43,477 bases of DNA, from positions 1 through 43,477 of the forward strand of contig DAOTVR010000130.1 in NCBI GenBank assembly GCA_034436315.1, written 5' to 3'. Every line of letters begins with the position of its first letter. Position 1 is the first letter of the stretch. The notes below the pieces were generated by a model. That model searched no databases and was not told the DNA's origin. It worked only from the letters and a program-made list of their open reading frames with translations. Below are positions 4,411 to 36,013 of the stretch, piece by piece. The stretch comes from Anaerolineae bacterium. GTDB lineage: Bacteria > Chloroflexota > Anaerolineae > UBA1429. Position numbers and translations under genes: made by a program.

Positions 4411-6066
4411 ATGACCAAAGGCATCGAGACCGTATTGGATGAATGTCTCGCCTGCCTCGCAGACGGGGAAAGCCTGGAGGCGTGCCTGGCACGCTATCCG
4501 CAGTTTCGGGGGGAGTTGGAGCCTCTGCTGCGGACGGCCCTCACGCTGCGCAAGGCCTACGCCCGGCCGGCTCCCTCCCAAGAGGCCCTGGCGCGCGTGC
4601 GCAGGGGCTTTTTGGCCGAGGCGGAGCGCCGCCAACGCGCCCTGGCCGAACGCAAACGGCGCGGCTGGCTCCGTTGGCAGCCCCAATTCAGCCTCTCGCG
4701 CGGGCTGGCCACGGCCCTTTTGACCCTGGTGTTGCTTTTCGGCCTCTTGGGGGGCGGGAGCATCGTCTCGGCCAACAGCCTCCCCGGCGACCCCCTCTAC
4801 GGGGTGAAGCGCGCCTCGGAGAAAATGCTCCTCCTCTTGACCTTCGACGCCCAGCAGCGCGCCGCCTTGGAGCGCCAATTTGAGAGCCGCCGCGTGGAAG
4901 AGGTCAAGAAGGTCGTGGAGCAGGGCCGACAGGTGGAGGTGGATTTCGCCGGCGTGGTGGAGAAGGTGGAGGGGGAGATCGTCTTCGTCCAGGGGATCCC
5001 CCTGCGCTGGGTCTCCGACCAACCCCCGGCCATAGGGACCGAGGTCCACGTCCGCGCCAAGACACAAGGGGAAGGCCCCCTGGAGGTCAAGGCCCTCGCC
5101 GTGCGCGAGCCGGCCCCCGCCGCGGCCCCGGTGGCCTCATCGCCCACCTTCACCGCCACGGCGACGGTCTCGTCTGAGCGCCGGCCGAGCGATACGCCGG
5201 CCGCCAAGCCCACCGACAAGCCGACTCCCACGTACACCATCCCGCCGACCGAGACGGCCCGGCCCACGGAGACGGCCACGGCGGAGGTCACCGCCACCGA
5301 GATGCCCAGCCTGACGGCCACCCCCACGCGGACGCCGACCCGCCCGCCCACGGCGACGCCCGTGCCGCCGCCCGAGGGGGTCAAGGTGCGCATTGAGGGG
5401 CGCATCGACGAGATCACCGACGCCTATTGGACGGTCAACGGCGAGCGCGTGCTCCTGCAGCGGGCCACCCGCTTCAACCTGACGCGCGCCCCGGCCCAGG
5501 TGGGCGGTTGGGCGGTGGTCGACGCCCTCAAGACCGGCGACGGCCGCCTCTTGGCGGAGGAGATCGTGGTCATGCGCGGCGCCGAGCAGCCGCCGGTATC
5601 CCGGGAGTTCAGCGGGATCATCGAGGCCATCGCCGAGGGGCGCTGGACGATCGGCGGGCGCGAGGTGCGCATCGTCGGCGATACGGTGATCGAAGGCACC
5701 CCGGCGGTGGGCGCGCTGGCCCACGTGCGCGCCGACCAATACGCCGACGGGCGCTTGGTGGCCCGACGGATCGTCGTCGAGAGCGAGCAGGTGGTGCAAT
5801 TTACGGGGATCATCAGCTCCATCGCCGCGGATCGGTGGGTGATCGGCGGTCAGGAGGTCTGGATAGATACCAACACGCGGATTGAAGGGCAGCCCACGGT
5901 GGGGGCCATGGCCGAGGTGGAGGCGCTACAGCGCGCCGACGGCACCTTGCACGCCCGACGGATCCGGGTGGAGCCGCCCGCCTCGCCGGAGGCGGCAGCC
6001 CCCACGGCCGAGCCGCCGGAGACGGCCGTCCCCACGGCCATCCCCACGGAAGGGGCCTCATCGTGA
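4411..6066 (+). CDS. Anti-sigma factor-like membrane protein with four extracytoplasmic DUF5666-type repeats
   Basis: It lies immediately downstream of the ECF sigma gene. It has a Cys-containing N-terminal helix domain, one TM segment (LATALLTLVLLFGLLGGG) and a PT-rich linker. About four units of the type FSGIIEAIAEGRWTIGGREVRIVGDTVIEG..ADGRLVARRIVV follow. Confidence 0.75.
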   Translation: MTKGIETVLDECLACLADGESLEACLARYPQFRGELEPLLRTALTLRKAYARPAPSQEALARVRRGFLAEAERRQRALAERKRRGWLRWQPQFSLSRGLATALLTLVLLFGLLGGGSIVSANSLPGDPLYGVKRASEKMLLLLTFDAQQRAALERQFESRRVEEVKKVVEQGRQVEVDFAGVVEKVEGEIVFVQGIPLRWVSDQPPAIGTEVHVRAKTQGEGPLEVKALAVREPAPAAAPVASSPTFTATATVSSERRPSDTPAAKPTDKPTPTYTIPPTETARPTETATAEVTATEMPSLTATPTRTPTRPPTATPVPPPEGVKVRIEGRIDEITDAYWTVNGERVLLQRATRFNLTRAPAQVGGWAVVDALKTGDGRLLAEEIVVMRGAEQPPVSREFSGIIEAIAEGRWTIGGREVRIVGDTVIEGTPAVGALAHVRADQYADGRLVARRIVVESEQVVQFTGIISSIAADRWVIGGQEVWIDTNTRIEGQPTVGAMAEVEALQRADGTLHARRIRVEPPASPEAAAPTAEPPETAVPTAIPTEGASS

Positions 6067-6088: not shown

Positions 6089-7060
6089 ATGAGGAGAGCG
6101 TTCGTCAGCATCCTGGGGGTGATCGTCAGCCTGTTGGTCACTCTAATGGTCGGCGCGCCGGCGCTGGCCGCGTCGGGCCGGGGCCCGGTGCTCATCTGGA
6201 CGCCGACCCGGCCCATCGCCGTGCGCTTTGAGGGCATCCTCACTCAGGTCTCCGCGATCCCCGGCGAGTGGCGCGTGGAGGGGATCAGCTTCCTCGTCAA
6301 CGCCGAGACCGAGATCTCCCCGGAGGGCTATACCCCCCAAGTGGGCGATTACGCCATCGTCAGCGCCATCCGCGAGGGCGAGACGCTCACCGCCACGCGC
6401 ATCCTCATCCGCGAAAAGAGGCTCTTTGAGTTTCGGGGAGTCATCACCGTCCTCCCGCCGGAGCCTTACGACGGGGAGTGGCTCATCGGCGGGGTGCGCG
6501 TGTGGGTCAATTCGCGGGCCACGCTGATCACCAACCGGCCCGCGCTCAGCTACTATGCCGACGTCAAGGGACGGCTGCGCCCCGACCTCCAGGTGGAGGC
6601 GACCGAGATCGTGGTCCTGAACCCCCAGGATGTCGCCAACGGCTTTGAGTTCCAAGGCCCCATCGAGCAGATCGCCTCTACCCCCACGCAAGAGGGCCCC
6701 TGGGTGATCGCCGGGGTGCAGGGGCTGGTCAGCGCCGATACGCGCATTGAGGGCGCGCCGGCAATCGGGGCGACGGCCGGCGTCACCGGCAAGCGCCTGG
6801 CCGACGGCACCCTGTTCTTTGAGCGCATCCGCGTGCTCACCGAGGCCGAGAACCAGGTGCGCGTGAGCGGCCTCATTGAGGAGATCCAGGAGGATTATTG
6901 GCTCATCGGCGGGCAGATGGTGGAGCTTGAGGAGACGACCTTCATAGACGAAAGCCGTTGTCGCGCCGCCGTGGGCATGTGGGCGGAGGCCATCGCCTAT
7001 CGCTGCTATGGCAGCGCGCTCTGCGCCCTGCGCATTCGGGTGGAAAGGCCCGAGGAATAG
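6089..7060 (+). CDS. Secreted protein with four DUF5666-type repeats
   Basis: The ATG at 6089 follows AAAGGGGGCGAGG and gives the signal peptide MRRAFVSILGVIVSLLVTLMVGAPALAASG. Four units of the type F(E/Q)GxIxxI..W.I.G..V.V...T.I are present. The listed upstream extension overlaps the previous gene and is Arg/Pro junk. Confidence 0.75.
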   Translation: MRRAFVSILGVIVSLLVTLMVGAPALAASGRGPVLIWTPTRPIAVRFEGILTQVSAIPGEWRVEGISFLVNAETEISPEGYTPQVGDYAIVSAIREGETLTATRILIREKRLFEFRGVITVLPPEPYDGEWLIGGVRVWVNSRATLITNRPALSYYADVKGRLRPDLQVEATEIVVLNPQDVANGFEFQGPIEQIASTPTQEGPWVIAGVQGLVSADTRIEGAPAIGATAGVTGKRLADGTLFFERIRVLTEAENQVRVSGLIEEIQEDYWLIGGQMVELEETTFIDESRCRAAVGMWAEAIAYRCYGSALCALRIRVERPEE

Positions 7061-7074
7061 GGCCTAAGATACAA

Positions 7075-7150
7075 GGCTGAAGTCCTCAGCCTTCAGCGAT
7101 CAGCCATCAGCCCTCGGCTGAGGGGCTGACGGCTGAAAGCTGATAGCCGA
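7075..7150. repeat. Heptamer-armed hairpin element (family 2)
   Basis: Left arm is CCTCAGC CTTCAGC GATCAGC CATCAGC CCTCGGC. Right arm is GGGGCTG ACGGCTG AAAGCTG ATAGCCG. It lies directly after the stop at 7060. Confidence 0.7.
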
Positions 7151-7178: not shown

Positions 7179-9893
7179 ATGAAGCGGAGGGTGCTCGTCT
7201 CGTTGGCTGTCCTCGCGGCAGCCTATATGTTCCTCATGGTGGACGGCTCCGCTCTAGAAACCCTCGCTTTCACGCCCTCAAGCGAAGGCTTAAGGGGGAG
7301 TTCGCTTGTTCCGCCTGCCTTGAGCCAGGCCTCGGTTTCCCACGGTGAGGAGAGCGGATCATCGCGCCTGGCCGTGGAGAGCTGGTCGCCGCCGGAGCGG
7401 GTCATCTCGGCGACGGCCGATTGCGCCCACCCCGCGCTGGCCGTGGATCGGGCCGACGGGGCGCTGCACCTCGTCTGGGAGGAGGCCGCCGCGGAGGGCA
7501 ACCGCATCGCCTACGCCCGCCGCGACGCTTTGGGCTGGCAGCCCGAAGCCCTCCCGGCGCCCCAAGGGGATAGCCCGGCCATCGCCCTGGATGCCGGGGG
7601 GCGGGCGCACATCGCCTATATCCAGGCCATCAGCGGGGAGCTACAGGTTTACCACCGCGTCCGCAGCGCGGAGGGCTGGAGCCTGCCGACCAGGGTGAGC
7701 TTGGGCGGCGGCCAATGTGCCGACCCCGATATCGCCATCGCCCCCGGCGGCGAGATAGACCTGGCCTGGGCGACCAGCCTGGGGATGATCAAACAGCTCT
7801 ACCGCGCCCGCTCCACGGATAACGGCGCCAGTTGGGGGCTGGTGGAGCCGCTCCTCTACGACGCGAGCTACGTCTACGGCTATGCCCCCAGCCTGGCCGC
7901 CGCGCCCGACGGGGGGCTCTGGTTGGCCTACCAGGGCGAGCCCGGCCCGACGGGCACCGTCGCGGCGGATATCTACGCCCTGCGATGGAGCGCGGGGCGA
8001 TGGCTTTCGCCGACCAACGTCTCTAACGGGCCGACGGGGCAATTCGCCCGAGGGGCCCAGATCGCCTGCGACTCCAGGGGGCGGGCACACCTCGTCTGGG
8101 AGACGGAGGCGCCCGATGGCCGGCTGTTCATCCAATACGCCCTCTACGCCAACGGCGTCTGGAGCGCGCCCCTGCGGCTCTCTCCGCCCACCGAATCGGC
8201 CACCGGCCCTTGCCTCGCCGTCGGCGCGGACGATACGGTCTATGTCGCCTGGATCGCCGGCCGCGCCCTGAGCTTTCGCAAGCGCGCGAGCAACGGCCTG
8301 TGGAGCGCGCTGGAGCGCATCGCCACCGACCAGGCGGGCCTACGCGGGGTGACGATCGCCGCCGATGGGGGGGCCGTCTATGTGGTGTGGAGCGCGCGCG
8401 GCCCCTCGGGGCTGCGGGAGCTCTTCTTCAGCCGGCGCTTGCCACCGCCAACGCCGACGCCCACGGATACGCCGACCCCCTCGCCCACCTTTACGCTAGA
8501 GCCCACGGCGACGCCCACGCCCACCGTGCCGCTGGTGGAAACGCCGACGGCCACGCCCACAGCAACCGAGACGCTCACGCCGACGGCGACGGTCACCTCG
8601 ACGGCCTCGCCGAGCGAGACGCCGCCCCTCAGCCCCACGCCCACCTATACGGTGATCCTCCCCCCGCGCGCCTTTATCCCCGTCGCCCTCAGGCCCGGCG
8701 GCGAGGCCTCGCCGGAGGGGAATCGCGAGACCCCCACGCCGGCCCAAGCGCGGCTGCAGGCTCTGCCGGCCTGGGCCTGGTCACAGAGCGTGGAGAACCT
8801 CTCCTCCTCCGGCGCCGATTCCCGCCAAGCCGCCCTGGCCGTGGCCCCTAACGGCACGGCCTATGCCGTGTGGCAGGAGTGGGACGAGCGCTATAGGCGC
8901 TGGATGCTCTATTATAGCGTTCGCGCGGGGGGCAATTGGTCGGCGCCGAGCCCCTTCTTCGCCGGGGAGCAGCCCGATCTGGCCGTCGGGCCGGATGGCC
9001 GGGTGCACCTCGTCTACGCCAACGAGATGTTCGGCAACTATGAGATCTATTACTCCACCTGGCTGGGGGATCGCTGGGCGGCCTCCAAGAACGTCTCCAA
9101 TACCAAGGAGGGGGTCTCCTCGCAGCCGGCCGTCGCCTGCGATGCCGGCGGCTTGCCGGTGGTGGTGTGGAGCGACACCACCGGCGGGCAGGCGTACATC
9201 TACTTTGCCTACCAGAATAACGGCGCCTGGCAGACCTATTGGGTCTCTTCCTCCTACGGTGGCAGCGCCCCCGACCTGGCCCTGGGCAAGAACGGCCGCC
9301 TCTGGCTCAGTTGGCAGGCTAAAGAGGGGGATTATTACGACGTCTTTGCCCTCTTCGGCGATGGCCGTTCGTGGAACCGGGAGGCGGTGAACGTCTCGGA
9401 TAGCGCGAGCGCCGACTCCCTCGCCCCTCGGTTGGCGGGGGACCGCTCGTGGGGGGCGTTCCTGGTCTGGCAGGAGGTCCGTAGCAGCTCGGCCATCTAC
9501 TACGCCGATACGCTGGAGGGCATTGACTGGTGGAGCGAGCCGACGAACCTCTCGCAGCTCGCCGGGCGGCCCGAACAGCCCTCTATCGCGGCCAACGCCG
9601 CCGGGGACGTGCACGTCGCCTGGAGCCACGTCGTCACCCCGGCCCAGGGGAGCCAATTACTCCATCGCCGCCGCGACCCCTCCACGGGGCAGTGGCTGCC
9701 GTTCGACGAGATCGCCCAGGAGCCAGCCAACCCCGGCCTCGGCGAGGTGGAGCTGGCCGCCGGCCCCGGCCGAGAGGTCCATGCCCTGTGGGCCAAGCCC
9801 CTGGCCAACGGCAAGCGGGATATCTACCATCGCCAGGGCGACCTGGCCTGGCCCTATCGCCTGCAGTTGCCGCTGATCTTTCGCTCCCGCTAG
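7179..9893 (+). CDS. Secreted protein with two seven-bladed propeller-like halves (sialidase/BNR-like) joined by a PT-rich linker
   Basis: An N-terminal signal/TM segment is present. A blade signature is repeated 7 + 7 times (..PALAVDRADGALHLVWEE.., ..AIALDAGGRAHIAYIQ.., ..LAVGPDGRVHLVYAN.. and others). There is one STDNGASW Asp-box. The linker is about 70 aa of PT-rich sequence. Confidence 0.6.
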   Translation: MKRRVLVSLAVLAAAYMFLMVDGSALETLAFTPSSEGLRGSSLVPPALSQASVSHGEESGSSRLAVESWSPPERVISATADCAHPALAVDRADGALHLVWEEAAAEGNRIAYARRDALGWQPEALPAPQGDSPAIALDAGGRAHIAYIQAISGELQVYHRVRSAEGWSLPTRVSLGGGQCADPDIAIAPGGEIDLAWATSLGMIKQLYRARSTDNGASWGLVEPLLYDASYVYGYAPSLAAAPDGGLWLAYQGEPGPTGTVAADIYALRWSAGRWLSPTNVSNGPTGQFARGAQIACDSRGRAHLVWETEAPDGRLFIQYALYANGVWSAPLRLSPPTESATGPCLAVGADDTVYVAWIAGRALSFRKRASNGLWSALERIATDQAGLRGVTIAADGGAVYVVWSARGPSGLRELFFSRRLPPPTPTPTDTPTPSPTFTLEPTATPTPTVPLVETPTATPTATETLTPTATVTSTASPSETPPLSPTPTYTVILPPRAFIPVALRPGGEASPEGNRETPTPAQARLQALPAWAWSQSVENLSSSGADSRQAALAVAPNGTAYAVWQEWDERYRRWMLYYSVRAGGNWSAPSPFFAGEQPDLAVGPDGRVHLVYANEMFGNYEIYYSTWLGDRWAASKNVSNTKEGVSSQPAVACDAGGLPVVVWSDTTGGQAYIYFAYQNNGAWQTYWVSSSYGGSAPDLALGKNGRLWLSWQAKEGDYYDVFALFGDGRSWNREAVNVSDSASADSLAPRLAGDRSWGAFLVWQEVRSSSAIYYADTLEGIDWWSEPTNLSQLAGRPEQPSIAANAAGDVHVAWSHVVTPAQGSQLLHRRRDPSTGQWLPFDEIAQEPANPGLGEVELAAGPGREVHALWAKPLANGKRDIYHRQGDLAWPYRLQLPLIFRSR

Positions 9894-10758: not shown

Positions 10759-10782
10759 GGGCGTTCAATGGAACGCCCCTAC
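10759..10782. repeat. Family-1 palindromic element (single copy)
   Basis: GGGCGTTCAATGGAACGCCCCTAC. Its GTAGGGG end, read on the minus strand, contains the TAG stop of the 10779..11834 gene. Confidence 0.75.
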
Positions 10783-12080: not shown

Positions 12081-12515
12081 ATGCCCAAGAACCCCCGCAA
12101 GCGCCGCTGCGAGGTGCAGGGCTGCCGGGCCTGGGCCAAGCGCGGCGAGAGCTTGTGCGCCGCACACCTGCATTCGCGCCTGGTACAGGAGCGCCCCGAG
12201 CTGCTCCTGCCCTTGTTGCGCGCCGTGGCCCAGGGGATGGAGGAGCGCCCCCTGGACGACCTGCGGCTCATCGATCAGGAGCTGCGCAACCTCTTTTTGG
12301 CGCGGGCCTTTTTCATCGCCTGGGTGGAGAAGCTGCGCGCCGAGCCGCCCGAGAGGCCCGGCCTGGGGCCGGGGCAGTTCCTGCGCGCCTGGAACGAGTC
12401 CACCGCCCGCCTGGTGCAGCTCTTGCGCGCCCGCCGCGAGCTGGGCGGCGACCAAGAGGGGGAATTCGGCGAGCTGATCCGCAGCGTGTACGAAACGCTG
12501 GAAGGGGATCAGTAA
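12081..12515 (+). CDS. Hypothetical small protein with an N-terminal Cys/His cluster
   Basis: AGGAGATC-ATG start. The sequence MPKNPRKRRCEVQGCRAWAKRGESLCAAHLH has a C-x4-C-x12-C-x2-H pattern, and the rest is helical. I recognise no family. Confidence 0.55.
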   Translation: MPKNPRKRRCEVQGCRAWAKRGESLCAAHLHSRLVQERPELLLPLLRAVAQGMEERPLDDLRLIDQELRNLFLARAFFIAWVEKLRAEPPERPGLGPGQFLRAWNESTARLVQLLRARRELGGDQEGEFGELIRSVYETLEGDQ

Positions 12516-12683
12516 TCAGCTTTCAGCGGTCAGCTTTCGGCTGTCAGCAACCAGCTTTCGGCCGTCGGCGGTCAGTTCTTACCCTGGGGGATGATCGCTG
12601 ACCGAAAAAGCCGATAGCTGCCGGCTGACCGCTGATAGCTGATAACCGAAGGCTGACCGCTGAGGCCTGACTACTGATAACTG
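12516..12683. repeat. Heptamer-armed hairpin element (family 2) between convergent genes
   Basis: Left arm is ATCAGCT TTCAGCG GTCAGCT TTCGGCT GTCAGCA ACCAGCT TTCGGCC GTCGGCG GTCAG. After the loop, the right arm reads GCTGACC..GCTGATA GCTGATA..GCTGACC GCTGAGG. Its last units encode ..GSYQ* of the minus-strand ORF. Confidence 0.75.
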
Positions 12684-13492
12684 CCTGGCGGCAACAGCGG
12701 GGCCATGTGGCTCCAGAGGTTAAAGTAGCGCCCACCGGAGACGCGGCCCACGTCGTCGCGGTAGGCTTGGAGGAAGACGAGGGAGACGCGGCGATGCTCG
12801 GCCGCCCAGCGTTCCAGGGAGCGGAGGAGGAGCCGTGCGGGGCCCTCCACATCCCAATGGCGACAAAAGACGCCCATGTAGGCCCGTTCGGCGTCCGCCT
12901 CGGAGCGCACCAAGGCGAGGAAATCGGCCTCCAGCTCGGCCAGGACCTCGGCGGGGATGGGTTTCAGGCCCTCCCCTAAGTCTACCAAGGCCAAGTTGAC
13001 GGCTGCCAGGAGCGGCCTGGGGCACGCCCCCGGAGGGAGGGCGCGCAGCTCGGCGGCGCAGCGGGGATCGGCATTGGCCACGGTCTTCAGCTCATAGGCG
13101 CGCACAAAGCCGGGGTCGAGCAGGACTATATCGTAAGGATGAAGGGTGAAGGATGAAGGATGGACCGTGGCCCTCATCTCCCTTGGTCCCCCTTCTCCCA
13201 AGTTTGGGAGAAGGGGGGAAGGGGGTTGAGGGTCCTTCGTCCTTCCGCCTTCATCCTTCCCCATGAGGCCCAGCTCGTAAGCCAGGAGAGGAGGGTAATC
13301 GCGGTGTAGCAGGCTCGTCCAGCGGCCATCGCGGGTGGCATAGCGCGCCCTCAAGAGCGGCTCGCGCTCCAAGGCGGCGAAGGCCGCCGCGTGCAGGTCG
13401 GCCTCGCGCAGGAAGAGGTCGGGCGCATCCTGAAACTGCCGGATGAGCTCGGCCAAAGCGCGCTCTAAGGCAACGCAATGTGCAACGCTCAC
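12671..13492 (-). CDS. Hypothetical protein, possible PD-(D/E)XK-fold nuclease, with an in-frame palindromic insert
   Basis: It is the longest ORF in the region and starts with GTG. YDIVLLD..AYELKT fits an hD..(D/E)xK signature. Residues GKDEGG..FTLHP are encoded by the 13135-13262 palindrome. Confidence 0.45.
   Translation of the reverse strand: MSVAHCVALERALAELIRQFQDAPDLFLREADLHAAAFAALEREPLLRARYATRDGRWTSLLHRDYPPLLAYELGLMGKDEGGRTKDPQPPSPLLPNLGEGGPREMRATVHPSSFTLHPYDIVLLDPGFVRAYELKTVANADPRCAAELRALPPGACPRPLLAAVNLALVDLGEGLKPIPAEVLAELEADFLALVRSEADAERAYMGVFCRHWDVEGPARLLLRSLERWAAEHRRVSLVFLQAYRDDVGRVSGGRYFNLWSHMAPLLPPGSYQ
13135..13262. repeat. Family-3 palindromic element with AAGGRTG/CCTTCNN heptamer arms, inside a CDS
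   Basis: Left arm is AAGGATG AAGGGTG AAGGATG AAGGATG. The central perfect palindrome is CCCTTCTCCC-AAGTTT-GGGAGAAGGG. Right arm is CCTTCGT CCTTCCG CCTTCAT CCTTCC. Confidence 0.7.
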
Positions 13493-13508
13493 GAGTTAGT
13501 TCTCAGGA

Positions 13509-13668
13509 GTCAGCTTTCAGCGGTCAGCCATCAGCTATTGGCAGTTAGCGGTCAGCTATCGGTGATCAACCCTTCCGACTTGAAACTAACGGCTAACAGC
13601 TGACGACTGATAGCTGACAGCTGATGGCTGAAAGCTGATAGCTGACGGCTAATGGCTGATGGCCGATC
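13509..13668. repeat. Heptamer-armed hairpin element (family 2), largest copy
   Basis: Left arm from 13511 is CAGCTTT CAGCGGT CAGCCAT CAGCTAT.. Right arm from 13596 is ACAGCTG ACGACTG ATAGCTG ACAGCTG ATGGCTG AAAGCTG ATAGCTG ACGGCTA ATGGCTG ATGGCCG. Confidence 0.8.
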
Positions 13669-13680
13669 ACGGACAACCAG

Positions 13681-13709
13681 ATTGTAAGTTGGTCGCTGGG
13701 GCTTGTCAA
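13681..13709 (-). promoter_or_regulatory. Consensus sigma70 promoter between two hairpin elements, facing the 12671..13492 ORF
   Basis: The minus strand reads TTGACA-17nt-TACAAT. Confidence 0.55.
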
Positions 13710-13718
13710 CTGCGATGG

Positions 13719-13812
13719 CTGTCAGTGTTCAGCAGTCAGTCGTCAGCGGTCAGCCAGCTCTTGGCCGTCGGCCATTCCGGCTGAGGGCTGAAAGCTGGCT
13801 GCTGATAGCTAC
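13719..13812. repeat. Heptamer-armed hairpin element (family 2)
   Basis: The left arm is GTCAGTG TTCAGCA GTCAGTC GTCAGCG GTCAGCC AGC. After the loop, the right arm is GGCTGAGG GCTGAAA GCTGGCT GCTGATA GCT. It is read through by the listed ORF 13703.. but is probably non-coding. Confidence 0.7.
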
Positions 13813-13825
13813 TTCGGAGGTTTCC

Positions 13826-15337
13826 TTGGAGATTCCCGATCGCGATCGAGCCCGGCTGCGGGCCAGGCTGGTGCGCGCCCTATCGGATATCGGCGCCTTC
13901 AGCCGCGAGGTGCTGCGGCGGCCGCTGCGCGGTTACCAGCTAGAGGTGGCGCGGGCCATCGTCGCCTCGGTCCTGGGGGGCCGGGGGCTGACCTTCGCGG
14001 TGATGATGGCCCGCCAGGCAGGCAAAAACGAGACCTCGGCCCAGGTGGAGGCCTTTTTGCTCAACTACTTTCGCCGCCGGGGCGGGTACCTCGTCAAGGC
14101 CGCGCCCACCTTCAAGCCGCAGGCAGCCAACAGCCTCCTACGGCTGAGGGCGGTGTTGGAGGGCAGCCTCCTCCCCCCGCCGAAGCACGAGGGGGGCTAT
14201 ATCCTGCGCGTGGGCCGGGCGCGGGCGCTTTTCCTCTCGGCCGGCCCCCAGGCCAACGTCGTGGGGGCCACGGCGAACATCCTCCTGGAGGCCGACGAGG
14301 CCCAGGATATAGACGAGGCCAAGTGGGAGAAGGACTTTCGCCCCATGGGGGCCTCCACCAACGTCACCACTGTCCTGTGGGGCACGGCCTGGACCTCGGC
14401 GACGCTCCTGGCGCGGGCCATCCGCGCCCTGCGCCAGGCCGAGGAGCGCGACGGCCTGCGGCGCGTCTTTATCGTCCCCTGGGAGGTCGTGGCCCAGGAG
14501 GTGCCGCCCTATGGGGAGTATATCCGAGGGGAGCTGGAGCGCCTGGGGCCGAACCACCCCTTCATCAAGACCCAGTACGACCTGGAGGAGATAGATGACC
14601 AGGGCGGGATGTTCCCCCCGGCCACGCGCGCGCTCATGGTCGGCACGCACCCGCGCCAACGCGCCCCCACCGAGGGGCGGGAATACGCCCTGCTGGTGGA
14701 CGTGGCCGGCGCATCCGAGGAGCACGCCGGCGGGGGCGTTCAAGCTCTTACCAACTTGGGCGTTCCATCGAACGCCCCTACTGAGCCGCGGCGGGATTCC
14801 ACGGCCCTGACCATCGTGGAGATCGTCCGCAACGAGCTGGGGTTGCCCCGCTTCCTGGTCGTGGATCGCTACGAGTGGACGGGCACGCCCCATCACCAAC
14901 TTTACGGGGCCATCGTGCACCTGGCCGAGCTGTGGGCCCCGACGCGGATCGTCGTGGATGCCACCGGCGTGGGCGCGGGGCTGGCCTCCTTCTTGCGCCA
15001 CGCCCTGGGGGAGCGCGTGCTACCCTTCACCTTCACCCTGGCGAGCAAGAGCGAGCTGGGCTGGGGCTTTTTGGGCATCTGCAACTCGGGGCGCTTCCTG
15101 GATCACCGCGACGACGGCTCGCCGGAGCGCGAGCGCTTCTGGCGCCAGGTGGCCGCCGCCGATTACGAGGTGCTGGCCGGGCCGGATCAGCGCATGCGCT
15201 GGGGCGTGCGCGACGCGGCGGTGCACGACGACCTGCTCATCTCCGCCGCCCTCTGCGCCCTATTGGATCACCGGGCGCCGGCCCCGTATAGCGGCTCGCA
15301 GATCATCGAGGCCGGCGATCCGTTGGCAAGTAGTTAG
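13826..15337 (+). CDS. Phage terminase large subunit-like protein (ATPase plus RNaseH-like nuclease)
   Basis: Has a Walker A-like motif (MMARQAGKNETS), a Walker B motif (ILLEADEAQDI) and a C-terminal VVDATGVGAGLASFL nuclease-type motif. The start is proposed at TTG 13826, after GGAGGTTTCC. The listed start at 13703 lies in repeat DNA. Confidence 0.7.
   Translation: MEIPDRDRARLRARLVRALSDIGAFSREVLRRPLRGYQLEVARAIVASVLGGRGLTFAVMMARQAGKNETSAQVEAFLLNYFRRRGGYLVKAAPTFKPQAANSLLRLRAVLEGSLLPPPKHEGGYILRVGRARALFLSAGPQANVVGATANILLEADEAQDIDEAKWEKDFRPMGASTNVTTVLWGTAWTSATLLARAIRALRQAEERDGLRRVFIVPWEVVAQEVPPYGEYIRGELERLGPNHPFIKTQYDLEEIDDQGGMFPPATRALMVGTHPRQRAPTEGREYALLVDVAGASEEHAGGGVQALTNLGVPSNAPTEPRRDSTALTIVEIVRNELGLPRFLVVDRYEWTGTPHHQLYGAIVHLAELWAPTRIVVDATGVGAGLASFLRHALGERVLPFTFTLASKSELGWGFLGICNSGRFLDHRDDGSPERERFWRQVAAADYEVLAGPDQRMRWGVRDAAVHDDLLISAALCALLDHRAPAPYSGSQIIEAGDPLASS
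14732..14781. repeat. Family-1 palindromic element copy, in frame inside the terminase gene
   Basis: GGGGGCGTTCAAGCTCTTACCAACTTGGGCGTTCCATCGAACGCCCCTAC encodes GGVQALTNLGVPSNAPT. Confidence 0.65.
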
Positions 15338-15425
15338 CCATCAGCTATCAGCTTTTAGCCACCAGCAGTTGTCCCTTGGGCAAAGAACTAGCCGTTGACT
15401 AATGGCTGACAACCGAAAGCTAAGG
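15335..15425. repeat. Heptamer-armed hairpin element (family 2)
   Basis: The left arm is TTAGC CATCAGC TATCAGC TTTTAGC CACCAGC. After the loop, the right arm is GTTGACT AATGGCT GACAACC GAAAGCT. It begins at the terminase stop codon. Confidence 0.7.
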
Positions 15426-16040
15426 ACGATGTTGACGGAAGAGGAGCTGATCGCCCTGTGGCAGGTGGCCCGGCGGGAGGTGTTGCGCCGTTGCGGGCAC
15501 ACCCTGGCCCGCCTGCGCGCCGGCGAGGGGGGCTTTTACGAGGCCGAGGATTTCTGGCAGGACCTCTTCTTGGCCTTCTGGAGGCTGCTCCGGAAATGGC
15601 AGGCCACCACGCCGGGGGATGAGCGCGCCCTCTGGGCCGCCTGGCGCAAGTTCCTCCACCGGGGAGGGGCGCAGATCCTGCGTCGCGCGCCGATGCGCCT
15701 CTGGGCGCGGCGCGAGCAGCCGCTGGCTCCCCAGCTCCTCGCCCTGGAGGACGACGCAGACGAGGCGGAACGGCCCCTGGACCCCATGGCCCAGGAGGCG
15801 CTCATCCAGGCGGAGGACGCCGAGGCAGAGTACCTGCGTCGGGCCTGCCTGGACGACCTGGAGGCGGCCCTTTGGGCGCTTCGCCCGGGGCAGCGGCAGG
15901 TGATCTTCATGGCCACCCTCGCCGAGTTGCCCGCCGCGGAGGTGGCCCGCCTCCTGGGGCTGAGCGACGGCAACGCCATCGCCCAGCGCCTGTACGTCGC
16001 CCGCGCGGCCTTGCGAAGGCTGTTTCGTGGTGACCAGTAG
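15402..16040 (+). CDS. Divergent sigma-70/ECF-like protein (region 4 HTH); a terminase small subunit-like role is also possible
   Basis: LRPGQRQVIFMATLAELPAAEVARLLGLSDGNAIAQRLYVARAALRRL is a sigma region-4-type HTH. The ATG at 15402 lies in the hairpin arm, and the ATG at 15429 is an alternative start. The TAG stop lies inside a family-1 repeat. Confidence 0.55.
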   Translation: MADNRKLRTMLTEEELIALWQVARREVLRRCGHTLARLRAGEGGFYEAEDFWQDLFLAFWRLLRKWQATTPGDERALWAAWRKFLHRGGAQILRRAPMRLWARREQPLAPQLLALEDDADEAERPLDPMAQEALIQAEDAEAEYLRRACLDDLEAALWALRPGQRQVIFMATLAELPAAEVARLLGLSDGNAIAQRLYVARAALRRLFRGDQ

Positions 16041-16094
16041 GGGCGTTCCATTGAACGCCCCTACCGCCTCGGGCGTTCAATGGAACGCCCCTAC
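16037..16094. repeat. Family-1 palindromic elements (two tandem copies)
   Basis: GTAGGGGCGTTCCATTGAACGCCCCTAC is followed by CGCCTCGGGCGTTCAATGGAACGCCCCTAC. Confidence 0.8.
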
Positions 16095-19689: not shown

Positions 19690-19752
19690 GTTATCAGTGA
19701 TCAGCAATCTGTAGTCAGACTGACCACTGATTGCTGAGAACTGATTACTGAC
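19690..19752. repeat. Heptamer-armed hairpin element (family 2 variant, almost no loop)
   Basis: GTTATCAG TGATCAG CAATCTG TAGTCAG pairs with ACTGACC ACTGATT GCTGAGA ACTGATT ACTGAC. The centre is GTCAG-A-CTGAC. Confidence 0.7.
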
Positions 19753-19773
19753 ACCTGAGAGGGGAGATACGCC

Positions 19774-21990: not shown

Positions 21991-22011
21991 CCTCCCCTCC
22001 CCGATTGTGTT

Positions 22012-22234
22012 GGGGCGTTCAATTGAACGCCCCTGCTGGACGCCCTATCCATCCCCTTATGTAGGGACGTTCAATTGAACGTCCCTACATAAGCGTTCAA
22101 TTGAACGTCCCTACCCAAGCGTCCAACTGACCGCCCCTGTATCCATCCCCTTACGTAGGGGCGTTCAATTGAACGCCCCTACCAAAACGTTCAATTGAAC
22201 GTCCCTACACAAACATTCAAACGAACGCCCCTAC
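22012..22234. repeat. Array of about 7 family-1 palindromic units
   Basis: Full units GTAGGG(A/G)CGTTCAATTGAACG(T/C)CCCTAC lie at 22061-22088 and 22155-22182. 26-nt partial units of the form nnAAGCGTTCAATTGAACGTCCCTAC, some degenerate, lie between them. Confidence 0.85.
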
Positions 22235-22249
22235 ATGTCTGCCCTATCC

Positions 22250-24640: not shown

Positions 24641-24749
24641 GTAGGGGCGTTCCATTGAATGCCCCTACCCAAGCGTTCCATTGAATGCCCCTACTTGACG
24701 CCTCACCCATCCCCCCGTATAGTAGGGACGTTCAATGGAACGTCCCTAT
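24641..24749. repeat. Family-1 palindromic units (three copies)
   Basis: GTAGGGGCGTTCCATTGAATGCCCCTAC, then CCAAGCGTTCCATTGAATGCCCCTAC, then GTAGGGACGTTCAATGGAACGTCCCTAT. Confidence 0.85.
24695..24723 (+). promoter_or_regulatory. Sigma70-type promoter embedded in the repeat module, upstream of the flavoprotein gene
   Basis: TTGACG-17nt-TATAGT. The -10 runs directly into the palindrome GTAGGGACGTTCAATGGAACGTCCCTAT. Confidence 0.55.
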
Positions 24750-24761
24750 CCAAGGATAGAC

Positions 24762-26708
24762 ATGAGCGAGCTTTGCGACGTCTTGATCATCGGCGGCGGG
24801 GGGGCGGCGTTGCGTGCGGCCATCGCCGCCTATGAGCGCGCTCCGGGGCTCCAGATCGTCCTGGTGACCAAGGGAAACCTGGGCCATAGCGGGGTGACGG
24901 CCACGGCCTGCTCCGACCGCATGGCCTTTCACGCCACGTTGCCCACCACCGAGCCGGGCGGCCCCGAGGCCTGGCGCTACCACGCCGAGGATATCTACCG
25001 CATCGGGGGATGCGTCTCCGATTGGGACCTGGCCGAGCTCCTGGCCAAGGAGAGCGCCCAGGCCTTTGCCTATCTGGAGCGGCTGGGGGTCCCCTGGGTG
25101 CGCCGCGCCGACGGCACGGTGGATCAATTCCTCACCGACGGCTCGCTCTACGCCCGCGCCTGCTACACCGGGCCTTATACCGCCAACCACATCGAGGAGG
25201 CCCTCCTGCGCCGCCTGCGGGAGCTGCCCATCCGTGTCGTGGAGCAGACCCTGGTGGCCGAGCTTCTACTGGACGCGCGCGGTGAGCAGGTGATCGGGGC
25301 GGCGCTCGTCTCGGAGCGGGATGGACAGATCAGCGCCCTGGGAGCCAAGGCCATCGTCCTGGCCACGGGCGGGGCCGGGCAGGCCTTTGCGGTGAACGTC
25401 TATCCCCCCGATTGCACCGGCGACGGCTACGCCCTGGCCTATCGCGCGGGGGCGGAGCTGGTCAACCTGGAATTCATCCAGATCGGCCTCTGTTCGCTCC
25501 AGACCGGGCTGGCCTGTTCCGGGGATATGATGCGCGCCCTGCCGCGCCTGGTCAACGACCGCGAGGAAGAGTTCCTGGCCCGCTACCTGCCGCCGGGGAC
25601 GACGCCCGCCGAGATGTACGGCCTCCTCTTCGCCAAAGGGGCGAGCTGGCCCGTCTCGGTGAACGAGCCCTCGCACCTCATCGACATCGCCGTCTCTCGG
25701 GAGTTGGCCGCCGGGCGGCGCGTCTACTTGGATTACGCCCGCGATCCCTGGGGTTTGGATTTCAGTGAGGGCGTTCAGTTGAACGCCCCTACAACCTTGG
25801 GCGTTCAGTTGAACGCCCCTACTGCCTCGGGTGCACGATCGAATGCCCCTACCGCGGTGCACGAGCGGGTGCGCGCATGGTATCGGGGCAAGGGATTGGA
25901 GCCGGGCGACCCGCGCCTGCGCAGCCCGCTGGAGCGCCTGAGGGCCATCAACCCCCAGGCAGTGGAGTGGCTGGCCGCGCGGGGGATTGATCTGGCCCGC
26001 GGGGACCGGGTGGAGGTGGCCCCGGCGGTGCAGCACTTTCAGGGCGGGGTCAAGATCCGCACCCGCGCCGAGACGACCCTGCGCGGCCTCTATGCGGCGG
26101 GGGAGGTGGCCGGGGGCCAGCACGGGGCCAACCGCCCCGGAGGCAACGCCCTATTGGATACGCAGGTCTTTGGGCGGATCGCCGGAGAATCCGCCGCCGA
26201 GTTCGCCCTGGCCGCCGGTAGTCGCGTCCCCTCGGTGCGCGGCCCAACGCCGCAAGACGCCGAGGACGCGATCCGACGCCTGTTCAGGGGCGTTCAGTTG
26301 AATGCCCAAGGCGGTAGGGGCGTTCAATTGAACGCCCCTACCGTGGTGCGCGAGCGGGTGCGCCGGGCCATGTCCGCCGCCTGCGGGGTTTATCGCACCG
26401 AGGCCGGACTAAGGGATCTCGTGCAAACCCTAGAGGAGCTGGCCGAGCATGGGGTCAGCGCCGAGGGTGTGCCCTTGAACGAGGCTTTGGAGGCGGCGAA
26501 CATCCTCCAGGTGGCCCGGTTGGTGGCCCGCGCCGCCCTGGAGCGCGACGAGAGCCGCGGGCCACACCTGCGCTTCGCGGCCGAGGGCTCGCTGGAGCCG
26601 CTGGCGCAGGATGACCGACGCTGGGCGCTCTACACGGTCATCCGCAGGGGGCCAGATGGCCCCCTCCTGGAGCGCCGCCGGCCCGTGCGCCCGGAGAAAG
26701 GTGTATAG
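24762..26708 (+). CDS. FAD-binding oxidoreductase of the SdhA/FrdA/NadB (FAD_binding_2) family, with two repeat-derived in-frame inserts
   Basis: Contains the [18 protein letters not shown] dinucleotide fold, [24 protein letters not shown], the active-site context HFQGGVKI, and [22 protein letters not shown]. The start at M10 of the listed ORF avoids repeat DNA. Confidence 0.85.
25769..25852. repeat. Three family-1 units, in frame within the flavoprotein CDS
   Basis: GGCGTTCAGTTGAACGCCCCTAC is followed by two 30-nt units ending in CCCCTAC. Together they encode [28 protein letters not shown]. Confidence 0.8.
26285..26341. repeat. Two family-1 units, in frame within the flavoprotein CDS
   Basis: AGGGGCGTTCAGTTGAATGCCC AAGGCG GTAGGGGCGTTCAATTGAACGCCCCTAC encodes [19 protein letters not shown]. 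Confidence 0.8.
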
Positions 26709-28618: not shown

Positions 28619-28713
28619 GCCGTCAGTTATCAGCCGTCAGCCATCAGCTAGACTCCCCGCAAGCTGACGACTGATGGCTGAGGGCCGTTTACTAAAAGCC
28701 GACAACTGATAAC
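28619..28713. repeat. Heptamer-armed hairpin element (family 2)
   Basis: The left arm is GCCGTCAG TTATCAGC CGTCAGC CATCAGC. After the loop, the right arm is AGCTGAC GACTGAT GGCTGAG ..CAACTGATAAC. It starts 2 nt after the NUDIX stop. Confidence 0.7.
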
Positions 28714-28724
28714 AGGAGGAGCTA

Positions 28725-29507
28725 ATGGGACGAACGCTTCACGTGGCCGCCGCGCAGCTCAAGATCGCGGCGGAGGTCGAGGAGAACCTCAGGCGCATCC
28801 TGGAGACCATGCGCCGTTGCGCCGCCGAGGACGTAGAGGCCGTGGTCTTTCCGGAGACGGCGCTCACCGGCTACAGCCCCAACATCGGCCACGGGCGGCA
28901 GCCGGCGGAATGGCCGCGCATCCAGGACGGCCTGGAGGCCATCTCCCGACTGGCCCAGGAGCTGGGCCTTTGGGTCGTCGTGGGCAGCGAGGCCTGGGAA
29001 AACGAAGCCTGGGTGAACCGCCTTTACGTCTACTCCGATAAGGGCCAGCTCGCGGCCAGCTACGACAAGGTGCACCTCACCAACGACGATACGCGTTATT
29101 ACCGCCCGGGGACGCGCAACGTGCTCCTGGAGCTCAAGGGGATCAAGGTCGGGCTGCAGATCTGCTACGACGTGCGCTTCCCCGAAGGCTATCGCGACCT
29201 CCTGGCCCAAGGGGCAGAGATCATCATGCAGGGCTTTTACGGCGCGGGCAAAGACACCTGGAAGGTGCCCGTGTTGGCCGCTCACCTGCGCGCGCGGGCG
29301 GCGGAGAACGGCTGTTTCGTCGTCGCCGCGAACGTCGCCGGGCCCCTGCAGATCGTGGTCTCGCAGATCATAGACCCGCTGGGCTTGGTCCTCGCGCAGG
29401 CCAACCAGGATCACGAGGAGATCATCAAGGCCCGCCTGGATCTAGAGCGCGTCGCCGAGAGCGAGGTCCGTCGCGATTACCTGACCCGCTTCCAAGGCAG
29501 AGGCTGA
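28725..29507 (+). CDS. Carbon-nitrogen hydrolase (nitrilase superfamily)
   Basis: The catalytic Glu context is VVFPETALTGY and the Cys context is GLQICYDVRFPE. Confidence 0.85.
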   Translation: MGRTLHVAAAQLKIAAEVEENLRRILETMRRCAAEDVEAVVFPETALTGYSPNIGHGRQPAEWPRIQDGLEAISRLAQELGLWVVVGSEAWENEAWVNRLYVYSDKGQLAASYDKVHLTNDDTRYYRPGTRNVLLELKGIKVGLQICYDVRFPEGYRDLLAQGAEIIMQGFYGAGKDTWKVPVLAAHLRARAAENGCFVVAANVAGPLQIVVSQIIDPLGLVLAQANQDHEEIIKARLDLERVAESEVRRDYLTRFQGRG

Positions 29508-34492: not shown

Positions 34493-36013
34493 ATGGTTGA
34501 GAGCGGGACGACGGAGGAGAAAGGGGCCCTAGAGGCCGGCGAGGGCGAGGCAGCCCCCGATCTGGAGGCGCTCTACAACGAGGGCATGGCCTATTATCGG
34601 CGGCGGCGCTGGCGCGAGGCCAAAGAGTGCTTCACGCGGCTGAACGAACTCCAGCCCAGCCGCCGGGTGGAAGCCCTATTACACGAGCTGGATATCTTTT
34701 TGCAGCTCGAGCTTGTGGAGGCGGAGACGGCGGAAGACGCTATTCCCGCCGCAGCCGCCGTTGAGGCCCGCCCCGAAGAAGAATACGAGCAAGCTCCCCC
34801 CGCCGGACAAAGGGCCTGGATCCCCTGGGTGGTGGTGGGGATCGTCTTGGCCCTGATCGGCGGCGGGCTGTTCCTCGCCTTGACGGGGCGCCTTCCCTTC
34901 GTCTCGCTCGTCTCCAGGGATCAACGGATCAAGAACCTGCGCAACCTGGGCGAGGCCTATATGGTGGCCCAGCAATACTGCAAGGCCCTGAAGACCTATG
35001 CCGAGCTATTGCCCCTGCTGCCCGAAGACCCGGAGGTCATCAACGGCGTTGAAAAGGCCAAGGCCAAGCTCTACGAGGAAGCCCAAGCCTACCTCAAGGC
35101 CAACAACCGCGAACAGGCCCTCGGCAACCTGAGATGCATCCTGGAACGGGATAGCGGCTACAAGGACGTCGCGGAGCTGATCCAGTCGTTGGAAAGGCGG
35201 CAGACCCTGGAGGCGGAATACGGTCGGGCCCACGAGTACCTGGTCAGCAACGCCTGTCGCGAGGCCGTCGACCGCCTGGAGAAGCTGCGGGCCACCGACC
35301 CGGAGTATAGCCCGGGGACGATCAGCGACGCCCTCTACGAGGCCTACATGTGCCTCGGCCGGCAGCTCATGGAATTGGTGGCGAGCGAGCTCAAGCTCGC
35401 GCCCACGGCGCAGCCGACGGAGCCGAGTTGGGCCGTCACGCAGGGGATCCTGGATAACGCCCTGGCCGCCAGCCGAGCCTTCGGCAAGGCGCTCAACGAG
35501 CGGCCCACCAGCGAGGAGGCCAAGCTGAACAAGGACTTGGCCGACAAGCTGAAGCAGGGCCTAGAGCGCTATAGCGTCGCGGCCTGGGCGGAATGCCTCC
35601 CGCCCCTGATGGCGATCTATGACCGAGACGCGGGGTACCTATCGGGCAAAGTGGCGGCGCTCCTCTGCGACGCTCGCCTTCACCTGGGCGACCTTTACGC
35701 GCGCAAGGGCGATTACCGGGCGGCGCTCAAGGAGTATCAGGCGCTTTTGGAGATGAAGGGCTGCGATCCCCAGCCGGCCCAGACGCGAGCCCGAGAGGTA
35801 GGGGTCTATCTGACTCCCTCGCCGACGCCGACGCTCACGCCGACATTCACCGCGACCCCCACGGCGACGGCCACGCACACGCCCAAGCCCACGGCGACGG
35901 CCACGCCGCGGCCGACGGCGACGCTCACGCCGACACCGACGCCCACGACGCCATCCGGCGGCGGGCGAACCGCTCCGCCGCCACCGACAGAGCCGCCTCC
36001 CGTCCGCTCGTAA
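34493..36013 (+). CDS. TPR-repeat membrane protein with a PT-rich C-terminus
   Basis: Has a TPR-like unit (LYNEGMAYYRRRRWREAKECFTRLNELQP) and one TM segment (WIPWVVVGIVLALIGGGLFLAL). Further TPR-like helices follow, then a TPSPTPTLTPT.. tail. Confidence 0.7.
   Translation: MVESGTTEEKGALEAGEGEAAPDLEALYNEGMAYYRRRRWREAKECFTRLNELQPSRRVEALLHELDIFLQLELVEAETAEDAIPAAAAVEARPEEEYEQAPPAGQRAWIPWVVVGIVLALIGGGLFLALTGRLPFVSLVSRDQRIKNLRNLGEAYMVAQQYCKALKTYAELLPLLPEDPEVINGVEKAKAKLYEEAQAYLKANNREQALGNLRCILERDSGYKDVAELIQSLERRQTLEAEYGRAHEYLVSNACREAVDRLEKLRATDPEYSPGTISDALYEAYMCLGRQLMELVASELKLAPTAQPTEPSWAVTQGILDNALAASRAFGKALNERPTSEEAKLNKDLADKLKQGLERYSVAAWAECLPPLMAIYDRDAGYLSGKVAALLCDARLHLGDLYARKGDYRAALKEYQALLEMKGCDPQPAQTRAREVGVYLTPSPTPTLTPTFTATPTATATHTPKPTATATPRPTATLTPTPTPTTPSGGGRTAPPPPTEPPPVRS

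Follow-up and report, generated by a model that had tools for sequence, protein, structure and literature searches.

Intergenic hairpins with opposed arrays of a TCAGC-core heptamer, and their fixed polarity, in an Anaerolineae chromosome, other bacterial phyla and tailed phages

A 43,477-nucleotide contig of an Anaerolineae bacterium (GenBank DAOTVR010000130.1, assembly GCA_034436315.1; analyzed whole and referred to here as the window) carries seven hairpins whose arms are tandem arrays of a degenerate seven-nucleotide unit, TCAGCNN in the left arm facing its complement in the right. The core of the unit is constrained while its spacer is not, the elements are remodeled between strains and turn over between species, and hairpins of the same design occur across bacterial phyla and in tailed phages, nearly always with TCAGC leading and GCTGA following. 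Our preferred explanation, held tentatively and with somewhat less than even confidence, is that they are slippage-built, slippage-tolerant structured spacers that would act on transcripts much as REP/BIME and STRR hairpins do.

All seven hairpins of the original prediction, which had been made from the letters of the window alone, were recovered in place and with the architecture it described. Allowing at most one mismatch, the pattern TCAGCNNTCAGC matched the window 54 times, against 3.86 +/- 2.05 in dinucleotide-preserving shuffles (largest 10), and just two of the 54 matches fell outside the seven loci; the predicted excess of heptamer periodicity over shuffled DNA is therefore real. When the window was scanned for 5-mers recurring three times at a period of 7, only TCAGC, GCTGA and CCTTC/GAAGG were returned, and the same scan at periods of 6, 8, 9 and 10 yielded nothing. 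Tandem Repeats Finder independently placed arrays of period 7, 14, 21 and 28 at the hairpin loci. The hairpins (E1 to E7), a promoter-like site lying among them and an eighth heptamer-armed hairpin with a different core are as follows.

E1, 7086-7150: left arm of five TCAGCNN units (7086-7118), right arm of four GCTGA units (7125-7150); between the stop codon of a DUF5666 gene (7058-7060) and the ATG at 7179 of a 904-aa BNR gene.
E2, 12509-12678: about ten units per arm (arrays 12509-12576 and 12610-12677); fills the spacer of the convergent genes 12081-12515 (+ strand) and 12671-13492 (- strand).
E3, 13503-13668: left arm of about ten units (13503-13535, with degenerate units further inward), right arm of 11 units (13592-13666); between the start of gene 12671-13492 (- strand) and the promoter-like site of that gene.
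Promoter-like site, 13681-13709, - strand: sigma-70-like, TTGACA-17-TACAAT; between E3 and E4, facing gene 12671-13492.
E4, 13719-13812: five and four units (13722-13754 and 13780-13805); ends 3 nt before GGAGG (13816-13820), followed by the TTG start at 13826 of a terminase-like gene.
E5, 15334-15421: left arm of five units (15334-15366), degenerate right arm; ends at AAGGA, followed by the ATG at 15430 of a sigma-70-region-4 protein.
E6, 19690-19756: variant units TCAGT/ACTGA, the right arm (ACTGACC, ACTGATT, GCTGAGA, ACTGATT, ACTGACA) being close to TAACTGA; between a cyclophilin-like gene (stop codon 19684-19686) and an FAA-hydrolase gene (ATG 19774).
E7, 28619-28713: four and three clear units (28623-28648 and 28663-28681) plus degenerate outer units; between a NUDIX gene (stop codon 28615-28617) and GGAGGA, followed by the ATG at 28725 of a CN-hydrolase gene.
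Eighth hairpin, 13135-13260: (AAGGATG)4, an inner palindrome CCCCCTTCTCCCAAGTTTGGGAGAAGGGGG, and (CATCCTT)4; in frame inside gene 12671-13492 (- strand).

The consensus of 85 units was T 92%, C 87%, A 81%, G 93% and C 74%, with core variants that were mostly transitions (TCGGC, TCAGT). The two positions after the core were nearly free apart from a pyrimidine-purine (Y-R) bias, so that the unit is best written TCAGC-Y-R; this confirms, and makes sharper, the earlier description of two variable positions in every 7 nt. GCTGA is the core in six copies and only E6 is built of ACTGA units. Neighboring units in the window shared the same spacer dinucleotide in one case out of 40. In hairpin arrays generally, spacer identity was 17.8% between adjacent units and 28% at a distance of two units, compared with 48-60% in solo, unpaired TCAGC arrays, where adjacent units accounted for the 48%, and hairpin arrays held no more than nine units where solo arrays reached 23. 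The "5+2" heterogeneity is therefore specific to hairpin arrays as contrasted with solo arrays. The element sequences were identical across independent ENA, JGI and Logan assemblies, and so the elements are not assembly artifacts.

Six of the seven loci folded more stably than dinucleotide shuffles of themselves, with z-scores of -6.3, -9.1, -7.6, -5.5, -5.6 and -3.1, and the expected pairing of the arms beyond random was thus borne out. All seven loci fold into long interrupted stems, though the locus of E5 (15330-15430) was weak on the + strand (z -1.6, -27.6 kcal/mol) and folded well only on the - strand (-44.7 kcal/mol). The relationship between the arms was examined in a set of 100-108 hairpins, comprising those of the window and of loci from other genomes and phages. 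Complementarity between the spacers of opposed arms showed no excess over permuted arrays, either in the best single register (0.458 vs 0.478 +/- 0.017) or as an order-preserving longest common subsequence that allowed unit indels (83 vs 84.0 +/- 2.4). Each arm is thus an array in its own right and not a mirror copy of the other, and both tests rule out an origin as inverted duplicates. Each stem is a series of 5-bp helices with 2x2 positions in between, where pairing occurs only by chance. We also considered an outward growth of the arrays, which would leave the inner units more degenerate; this pattern was seen in E2 and E3 but was absent in 30 long-loop hairpins elsewhere, and it was rejected.

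Hairpins of this kind are widespread. When one genome per species was scanned for runs of four exact TCAGCNN units, at least 120 loci were returned; among the matches listed, about 43 of 120 were from Acidobacteriota, the others came from Chloroflexota, Planctomycetota, Verrucomicrobiota, Cyanobacteriota, Nitrospirota and further phyla, and the hairpin design was likewise visible in these foreign loci. The corresponding four-unit scan of IMG/VR gave at least 120 stretches. Tailed-phage contigs, recognized by terminase, portal and capsid genes, carried hairpins between most of their structural genes. Compact phage genomes usually keep only expression signals between genes. At least ten TCAGC hairpins each were present in IMG/VR 3300045936_000120 (L164, L212, L216; L numbers designate loci retrieved from other genomes and phages), 3300045933_000102 (L501, L505) and 3300005541_000016 (L163). 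L163 and L164 have about 60% GC and hairpins between structural genes; terminase, portal and capsid proteins are encoded in L164 and a P22-type coat protein in L163.

The order of the two arms was nearly invariant. Within 200 nt, TCAGC-then-GCTGA outnumbered the reverse by 40 to 6 among the genome loci listed and by 60 to 6 among the viral loci listed, and the minority orientation arises partly from neighboring hairpins. An unbiased pattern scan of IMG/VR, in which each arm had to contain three exact units and the loop had to measure 5-35 nt, found 82 stretches in the observed order and 2 in the reverse. Both orders share the same helices and loop closures by symmetry, and thermodynamics therefore cannot explain the polarity. 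TCAGC could not be demonstrated to be a uniquely abundant core, as its own counts are lower bounds (at least 120) and four units of the control core GACTC occurred in 116 viral stretches, with 13 GAGTC...GACTC hairpins vs 2 in the reverse order. TCAGC stands out by the share of its arrays that form polar hairpins. Hairpins with other cores were noted at L124:3790-4000 and in the viral loci L281, L308, L332, L406 and L415 (GGTTCNN/NNGAACC, GAGTCNN/NNGACTC, GGAACCN/NGGTTCC and GGGTTCA/TGAACCC), and one core usually dominates per contig. No common rule for the leading arm could be established: purine content, G/C skew, stop codons and a pause consensus each failed across TCAGC, GAGTC, GGTTC, GGAACC and AAGGATG.

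All seven copies are intergenic, and they occupy a characteristic position relative to genes. E1, E5, E6 and E7 lie between co-directional genes and start 0-25 nt past a stop codon or include it. Five copies had been described as beginning within 0-15 nt of a stop codon; nearness to stops was found, but with a distance of 0-25 nt or with the stop inside the first unit (12509, 15334). In E2 both flanking stop codons fall inside the outermost units (TCAGTAA at 12509), and the first unit of E5 (TTAGC at 15334) overlaps the TAG at 15335-15337. At the other foot, the Shine-Dalgarno sequence of the following gene comes immediately after E5, E6 and E7, and E1 ends 28 nt before an ATG, such that the distance from the hairpin end to the Shine-Dalgarno sequence or start is 3-28 nt in E1, E4, E5, E6 and E7. 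The right arms of these five read NNRCTGA on the coding strand, 8-28 nt upstream of the start codon. Given the strong promoter-like site at 13681-13709, E3 would form the predicted 5' leader of gene 12671-13492, in agreement with an earlier assignment of one copy to such a leader; the hexamers of this site are kept in the related loci L124 and L125 (TTGACA ... TAGAAT).

Elsewhere, 87 hairpins were assigned to a gene context, and the spacer was co-directional for 57, convergent for 21 and divergent for 9. A genome has as many convergent spacers as divergent ones, and the convergent excess points weakly to gene 3' ends. In other genomes and phages, approximately 185 pairs of a hairpin and a stop codon had a modal gap of about 5 nt and 41% lay within -10 to +15 nt, gene calls in these foreign loci being crude (longest open reading frame) and blurring the distances from stop to array and from array to start.

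The two arms differ in what they would present to a ribosome. In (UCAGCNN)n, AUG, GUG, UUG and stop codons are impossible in every frame whatever the NN, and (NNGCUGA)n places UGA in all three frames within 21 nt. In the foreign loci about one quarter of the upstream reading frames had no stop before the hairpin and ran into the left arm because it is open in all frames, and they ended within the loop or the UGA-rich right arm. Such run-through frames point to either repeat-encoded C-terminal extensions or miscalled genes. No promoters were predicted inside the heptamer arrays of the window. A scan for the intrinsic-terminator consensus showed no enrichment (11 vs 9.4 expected), and as no outer stem qualified we rejected the canonical intrinsic terminator as a description of these elements. 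The sole stem with terminator features was the inner stem of E2 on the - strand, where a small inner hairpin in the loop is followed by TTTTT (12603-12626). The earlier statement that no copy is followed by a U-tract was accurate for most copies, the exceptions being this TTTTT and the ATTTTCC directly after E1 (7086-7150).

Comparison with relatives showed how the elements change. The order of the 144-aa gene, the - strand gene, the terminase-like gene and the sigma-like gene was kept at 99, 85, 79, 73 and 72% protein identity, and a second set of relatives was compared at the site of E7.

L483 (99% strain): left arm of E3 longer by 28 nt (four units), right arm shorter by 7 nt (one unit); E4 and E5 unchanged.
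L125 (85%): E3 missing; E4 site occupied by a shorter TCAGC hairpin, E5 site by a TCAGC remnant; a further TCAGC hairpin downstream of the sigma-like gene, at the position of a GTAG palindrome in the window.
L124 (79%): E2 and E3 both missing; E4 site occupied by a very large hairpin with another core, about 21 GGTTCNN units facing about 12 NNGAACC units; two TCAGC/ACTGA hairpins at other positions.
L126-L128 (72-73%): none.
L551 (89%), E7 site: a shorter, degenerate copy.
L552 (82%), E7 site: a 14-nt spacer with no hairpin.

A heptamer hairpin at the E4 site was thus kept in three of five relatives, one of them with the GGTTC core, and E7 was identical in four assemblies. The presence/absence polymorphism that had been anticipated was seen for E7 against L552 and for E2 and E3 against L124 and L125, and in the empty-site comparisons of E7 and E3 no target-site duplication was visible. 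Slippage operates within populations, and gain, loss or replacement between species. Since whole elements are gained, lost or replaced among relatives, they are dispensable at any one site. In a further locus, L484, sequence to the left of the E4 loop was unrelated to that of the window (L484:1-110 against 13600-13720) while the flanks were 99% identical; its E4 had seven substitutions in the left arm, mostly G to A, and an identical right arm. This junction arose either from recombination within the hairpin or from the joining of sequences during assembly, the contig end being close by. The AAGGATG/CATCCTT insertion in the conserved gene 12671-13492 is translated as ...GKDEGGR...HPSSFTLHP..., is of variable length in L124 and L125, and the L127 homolog is without the segment.

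On our preferred reading the seven loci belong to a genome-wide class of intergenic palindromes, each a run of TCAGC-NN units facing a run of NN-GCTGA units across a unique loop. We propose that the arrays gain and lose units by replication slippage, 7 nt or a multiple of 7 nt at a time and independently in each arm, and that a uniform 5-nt core would let the arms zip in any register, so that the stem survives such indels. Pairing in any register would explain the constrained core, the free spacers forming small internal loops, the independent indels of the two arms and the contrast with solo arrays. The elements would be transcribed along with their flanking genes, and the transcript would fold into a long interrupted stem-loop that has the stop codon of the upstream gene at one foot and the ribosome-binding site of the next gene at the other. 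Candidate roles are a barrier to 3' exonucleases, pausing or termination after a gene, or a protective 5' stem on the next message or leader (as in E3); coupling of termination to re-initiation may be another. The elements would then be dispensable modulators rather than essential signals, as relatives lack them or carry another core. The placement between stop codon and ribosome-binding site and the occurrence in phage late operons would fit a role on transcripts. For the transcript 3' hairpin or terminator that was originally put forward as a role, the positions are compatible, including the convergent over divergent excess, but no strand-specific signal accompanies them.

Several observations weigh against such structured spacers acting on transcripts. 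If selection acted on the RNA, one strand might be expected to fold better; in 57 co-directional contexts the sense strand was the better folder in 28 and the antisense in 28, fold energy serving here as a proxy for G-U against A-C mismatches, and there is no strand-specific signature of RNA-level selection. E1, E5 and E7 in fact fold better as antisense, a bias that the 28:28 tie shows not to be general. Compensated double variants in the core numbered 8 against 4.0 +/- 1.8, barely above chance. Most copies are without a U-tract, a divergent promoter region is the setting of E3 and E4, and the distances measured in foreign loci carry the blurring already mentioned. Any function must be dispensable, as both E2 and E3 are missing in L124 and L125 and the L552 site is empty. 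Finally, a purely structural role leaves a polarity of about 40:1 unexplained.

That polarity speaks for regarding the elements as selfish DNA, a founder family spread to new intergenic and now and then coding sites by some copying or recombination mechanism with phages as carriers, remodeled by slippage and persisting because harmless; we consider this possible, if on the unlikely side. Descent from a founder would be expected to give the fixed order (82 vs 2), where independent local origin predicts a ratio near 1:1, and it would sit well with clean presence/absence at the sites of E7, E2 and E3, with the related AAGGATG hairpin inserted in frame in a conserved gene, with the same core in many phyla and phages and with the abrupt sequence change at the E4 loop of L484. 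However, the L484 junction is so close to the end of its contig that assembly may have created it, the copies have no target-site duplications and no conserved loop and are alike only in the core, and their arms, unlike terminal inverted repeats or the arms of REPINs, are not mirror images. The window contains no transposase or RAYT gene, several cores coexist in one genome, and sampled F...R pairs enclose ordinary phage genes and not a transposase. In the sample of fetched loci, 24 such pairs lying 0.2-3 kb apart enclosed ordinary genes of varied size, one encoding a protein that we take from its sequence to be methylase-like, and no autonomous element with the same ends was found among these loci. 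The suggestion of non-autonomous mobile DNA therefore survives in its presence/absence aspect but is not supported for an element of the type with terminal inverted repeats and target-site duplications, as the arms are not mirrored and an autonomous partner was lacking in the sampled loci.

Polarity would also favor a protein-binding platform. The arrays could be recognized on RNA or DNA, as a 5-mer at 7-nt spacing, by a protein, the ribosome or RNA polymerase, the opposed arm masking or positioning them and the working part being the forward (NN-R-CUGA)n arm just upstream of starts, as proposed for the TAACTGA repeats discussed below; we judge this unlikely. It is consistent with conservation of sequence and not just of pairing (the same core across units, copies and phyla, and almost no covariation), with a fixed gene orientation in which the UCAGC arm follows the stop and the GCUGA arm precedes the start, an orientation equal to that of "forward" TAACTGA arrays (PMC4679880), and with the ACTGA units of E6 and of one L124 hairpin, which grade into TAACTGA. 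The codon properties of the two arms agree with it as well, and GCTG every 7 nt would fit the elemental pause consensus, which is reportedly G(-10)/Y(-1)/G(+1) (Larson 2014; Vvedenskaya 2014). These codon and pause properties nevertheless fail for other cores; GGTTC, AAGGATG, GAGTC and GGAACC build the same architecture, some within one genome, and no single factor would serve them all. Moreover, the 21 convergent hairpins of 87 have no downstream start codon, and no candidate protein was identified. Least probable, and in our estimate quite improbable, is a neutral by-product of heptamer slippage and palindrome-templated repair in free spacers, with neither function nor propagation. Unit-number polymorphism between near-identical strains, rapid turnover and dispensability, the lack of strand asymmetry and the commonness of control-core arrays would all be expected of it, as would the statement, relayed from Mrazek 2007 in PMC4679880, that heptanucleotide repeats are the most abundant long simple-sequence-repeat class in most genomes. 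Against it, independent random origin is incompatible with 82:2, five conserved positions beside two saturated ones require constraint, hairpin and solo arrays differ in spacer heterogeneity and length, and size-constrained phage genomes keep hairpins between most genes.

None of the explanations tested fully accounts for the polarity, which is the best lead. A bolder proposal, and to us a doubtful one, is that the hairpins form a single unrecognized cross-phylum family of bacteria and tailed phages. Their polarity and sequence-conserved 5-mer would then reflect either a directional factor reading (NNRCUGA)n on nascent RNA or on DNA (in pausing, termination or translation insulation, and covering TAACTGA and some STRR repeats) or a new means of copying hairpins without transposon-like ends.

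The original prediction could place the elements in no described family. This was partly right: related heptamer repeats have been published, namely the STRR hairpins (PMC2670836) and the TAACTGA repeats (PMC4679880), and the TCAGC unit was not found described. Our literature search returned no description of this unit, of its occurrence in Chloroflexota or other phyla or of its fixed polarity, and a 2026 paper on 3' stem-loops had nothing on heptamer repeats. The expected lack of a match to a catalogued repeat family was confirmed in Rfam scans of the window, which gave no family for the elements; a lenient scan produced sub-threshold generic hairpin (miRNA-precursor) matches.

STRR sequences of filamentous cyanobacteria are 7-bp repeats that fold into hairpins between genes, as in the hupS-hupL spacer and upstream of hoxW; the roles proposed for them are in transcript stability, translational coupling and termination (PMC2670836). 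The present elements are likewise tandem 7-nt intergenic units, in which inverted runs close to gene ends can pair into a hairpin, and are likewise variable between strains. The STRR units are CCCCAGT, TTGGTCA and CAACAGT, from which TCAGC-Y-R differs; STRR hosts are filamentous cyanobacteria, whereas TCAGC elements occur in Chloroflexota, many other phyla and phages. The 5+2 degeneracy, the non-complementary spacers and the near-absolute polarity were not found described for STRR. Membership in STRR was thus rejected on host and unit.

TAACTGA is an intergenic direct repeat of marine Beggiatoaceae, some Cyanobacteria and Bacteroidetes (MacGregor 2015, PMC4679880), with 169 direct sets vs one inverted set, 2-6 exact copies per set, a predicted lack of structure and a forward orientation upstream of start codons in Beggiatoaceae and Flexibacter. 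Both groups are CTGA-containing intergenic heptamers with 7-nt indels between strains and a patchy cross-phylum distribution, and in both the forward orientation lies just upstream of starts and has stops in three frames, the reverse being translatable. ACTGA units of E6 and of one L124 hairpin are one or two bases from TAACTGA (TTACTGA and CAACTGA in E6). TCAGC elements differ in having opposed degenerate arrays that form a stem, a dominant GCTGA core and a normal Shine-Dalgarno sequence following. Membership was therefore rejected on the unit and on the direct versus inverted arrangement.

REP, BIME and REPIN sequences resemble the present elements as abundant intergenic palindromes in co-directional or convergent spacers, often within operons and dispensable at each site, and a REPIN also has a fixed inverted arrangement of two modules. 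REP units, however, are conserved over 20-40 nt and have a GTAG or CGTC tag and a link to the RAYT transposase, whereas TCAGC arms are simple-sequence arrays with only a 5-mer common to the copies and no tag; membership fails on these grounds. Miniature inverted-repeat transposable elements (Correia, RUP, Nezha) share shortness, lack of coding capacity, hairpin formation, intergenic location and presence/absence between relatives, but TCAGC elements have none of their mirrored terminal inverted repeats, target-site duplications or conserved internal sequence. Intrinsic terminators, among them the U-tract-poor stem-loops of high-GC bacteria, and RNase III or stabilizer hairpins of phage and operon genes are likewise stable stem-loops after stop codons and between cistrons, including in phage late operons. 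TCAGC stems differ from terminators in their 30-80 pairs, periodic interruption and single 5-mer, in being mostly without a U-tract and in occurring also in 5' leaders. Clear precedents thus exist, and the elements described here are heptamer-repeat intergenic hairpins from outside the cyanobacteria for which a TCAGC core has been defined and a polarity documented.

The gene content of the window is that of an ordinary chromosome, with genes for methionine aminopeptidase, pyruvate:ferredoxin oxidoreductase subunits, a two-component system, an aminotransferase and similar functions. Its GC content is about 66% and its host a high-GC, Anaerolineae-like member of the Chloroflexota; the nearest named homologs of its proteins are from Anaerolineae or Chloroflexi metagenome-assembled genomes. 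A cyanobacterial origin was ruled out by the count of HIP1 (GCGATCGC), 2 vs 2.7 expected, with no enrichment. The only Rfam match at gathering score was a tRNA-Pro(GGG) at 2038-2112 on the - strand. A Type ISP restriction enzyme C-terminal specificity domain is encoded at the window start (110-1231, E 5e-87). Gene 13826-15337 encodes a terminase-large-subunit-like protein (weak Terminase_6C match) and is followed by the sigma-70 region-4 protein at 15430-16040; this pair shows conserved synteny, has more than 3000 homologs, mostly on Anaerolineae-type contigs, and appears to be chromosomal and not prophage-borne. Two sets of tandem repeats, of 18/36 nt at 8465-8605 in the coding region of the 904-aa BNR-repeat protein and of 6/12/24 nt (CGCCGA-type) at 35820-35947 in that of a TPR protein, are unrelated to the heptamer elements.

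Two other palindrome families occur nearby. A GTAG-tagged, REP-like palindrome, GTAGGGGCGTTCAATTGAACGCCCCTAC, has 14 copies in the window vs 0 expected, at 10759-10778, 14758-14777, 16037-16094, 22002-22235 (a cluster of about seven), 24642-24748, 25763-25824 and 26286-26339. Several are in frame in coding regions, including one in the terminase-like gene and two pairs in the FAD-binding flavoprotein gene 24735-26708, where they are read as GVQLNAP(T). The other family, CCC(C)TTCTCCCA-N4-TGGGAGAAGGG, is often nested in GGCCCTCA...TGAGGGCC and recurs in intergenic regions of relatives (window 13185-13218; L124:2797-2852 and 5552-5969; L125:2069-2163; L127:6323-6698). Its copy in the window gave a sub-threshold match to the Rfam skipping-rope RNA (25.8 bits vs a gathering score of 36.7).

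Few features of bacterial genomes are as abundant and as poorly understood as intergenic repeat hairpins such as REP, BIME and STRR. The TCAGC hairpins offer a clean handle on them, with a defined 5+2 unit, a slippage-tolerant structure, near-absolute polarity and an occurrence in many phyla and in phage late operons. On the practical side, the arrays break metagenome assemblies and mislead gene callers, and copies that lie in frame within genes lengthen the proteins by inserted peptides. Should a factor or a copying mechanism lie behind the polarity, this would unite the scattered reports of STRR and TAACTGA repeats in one system and would provide a testable model for action on transcription or translation.

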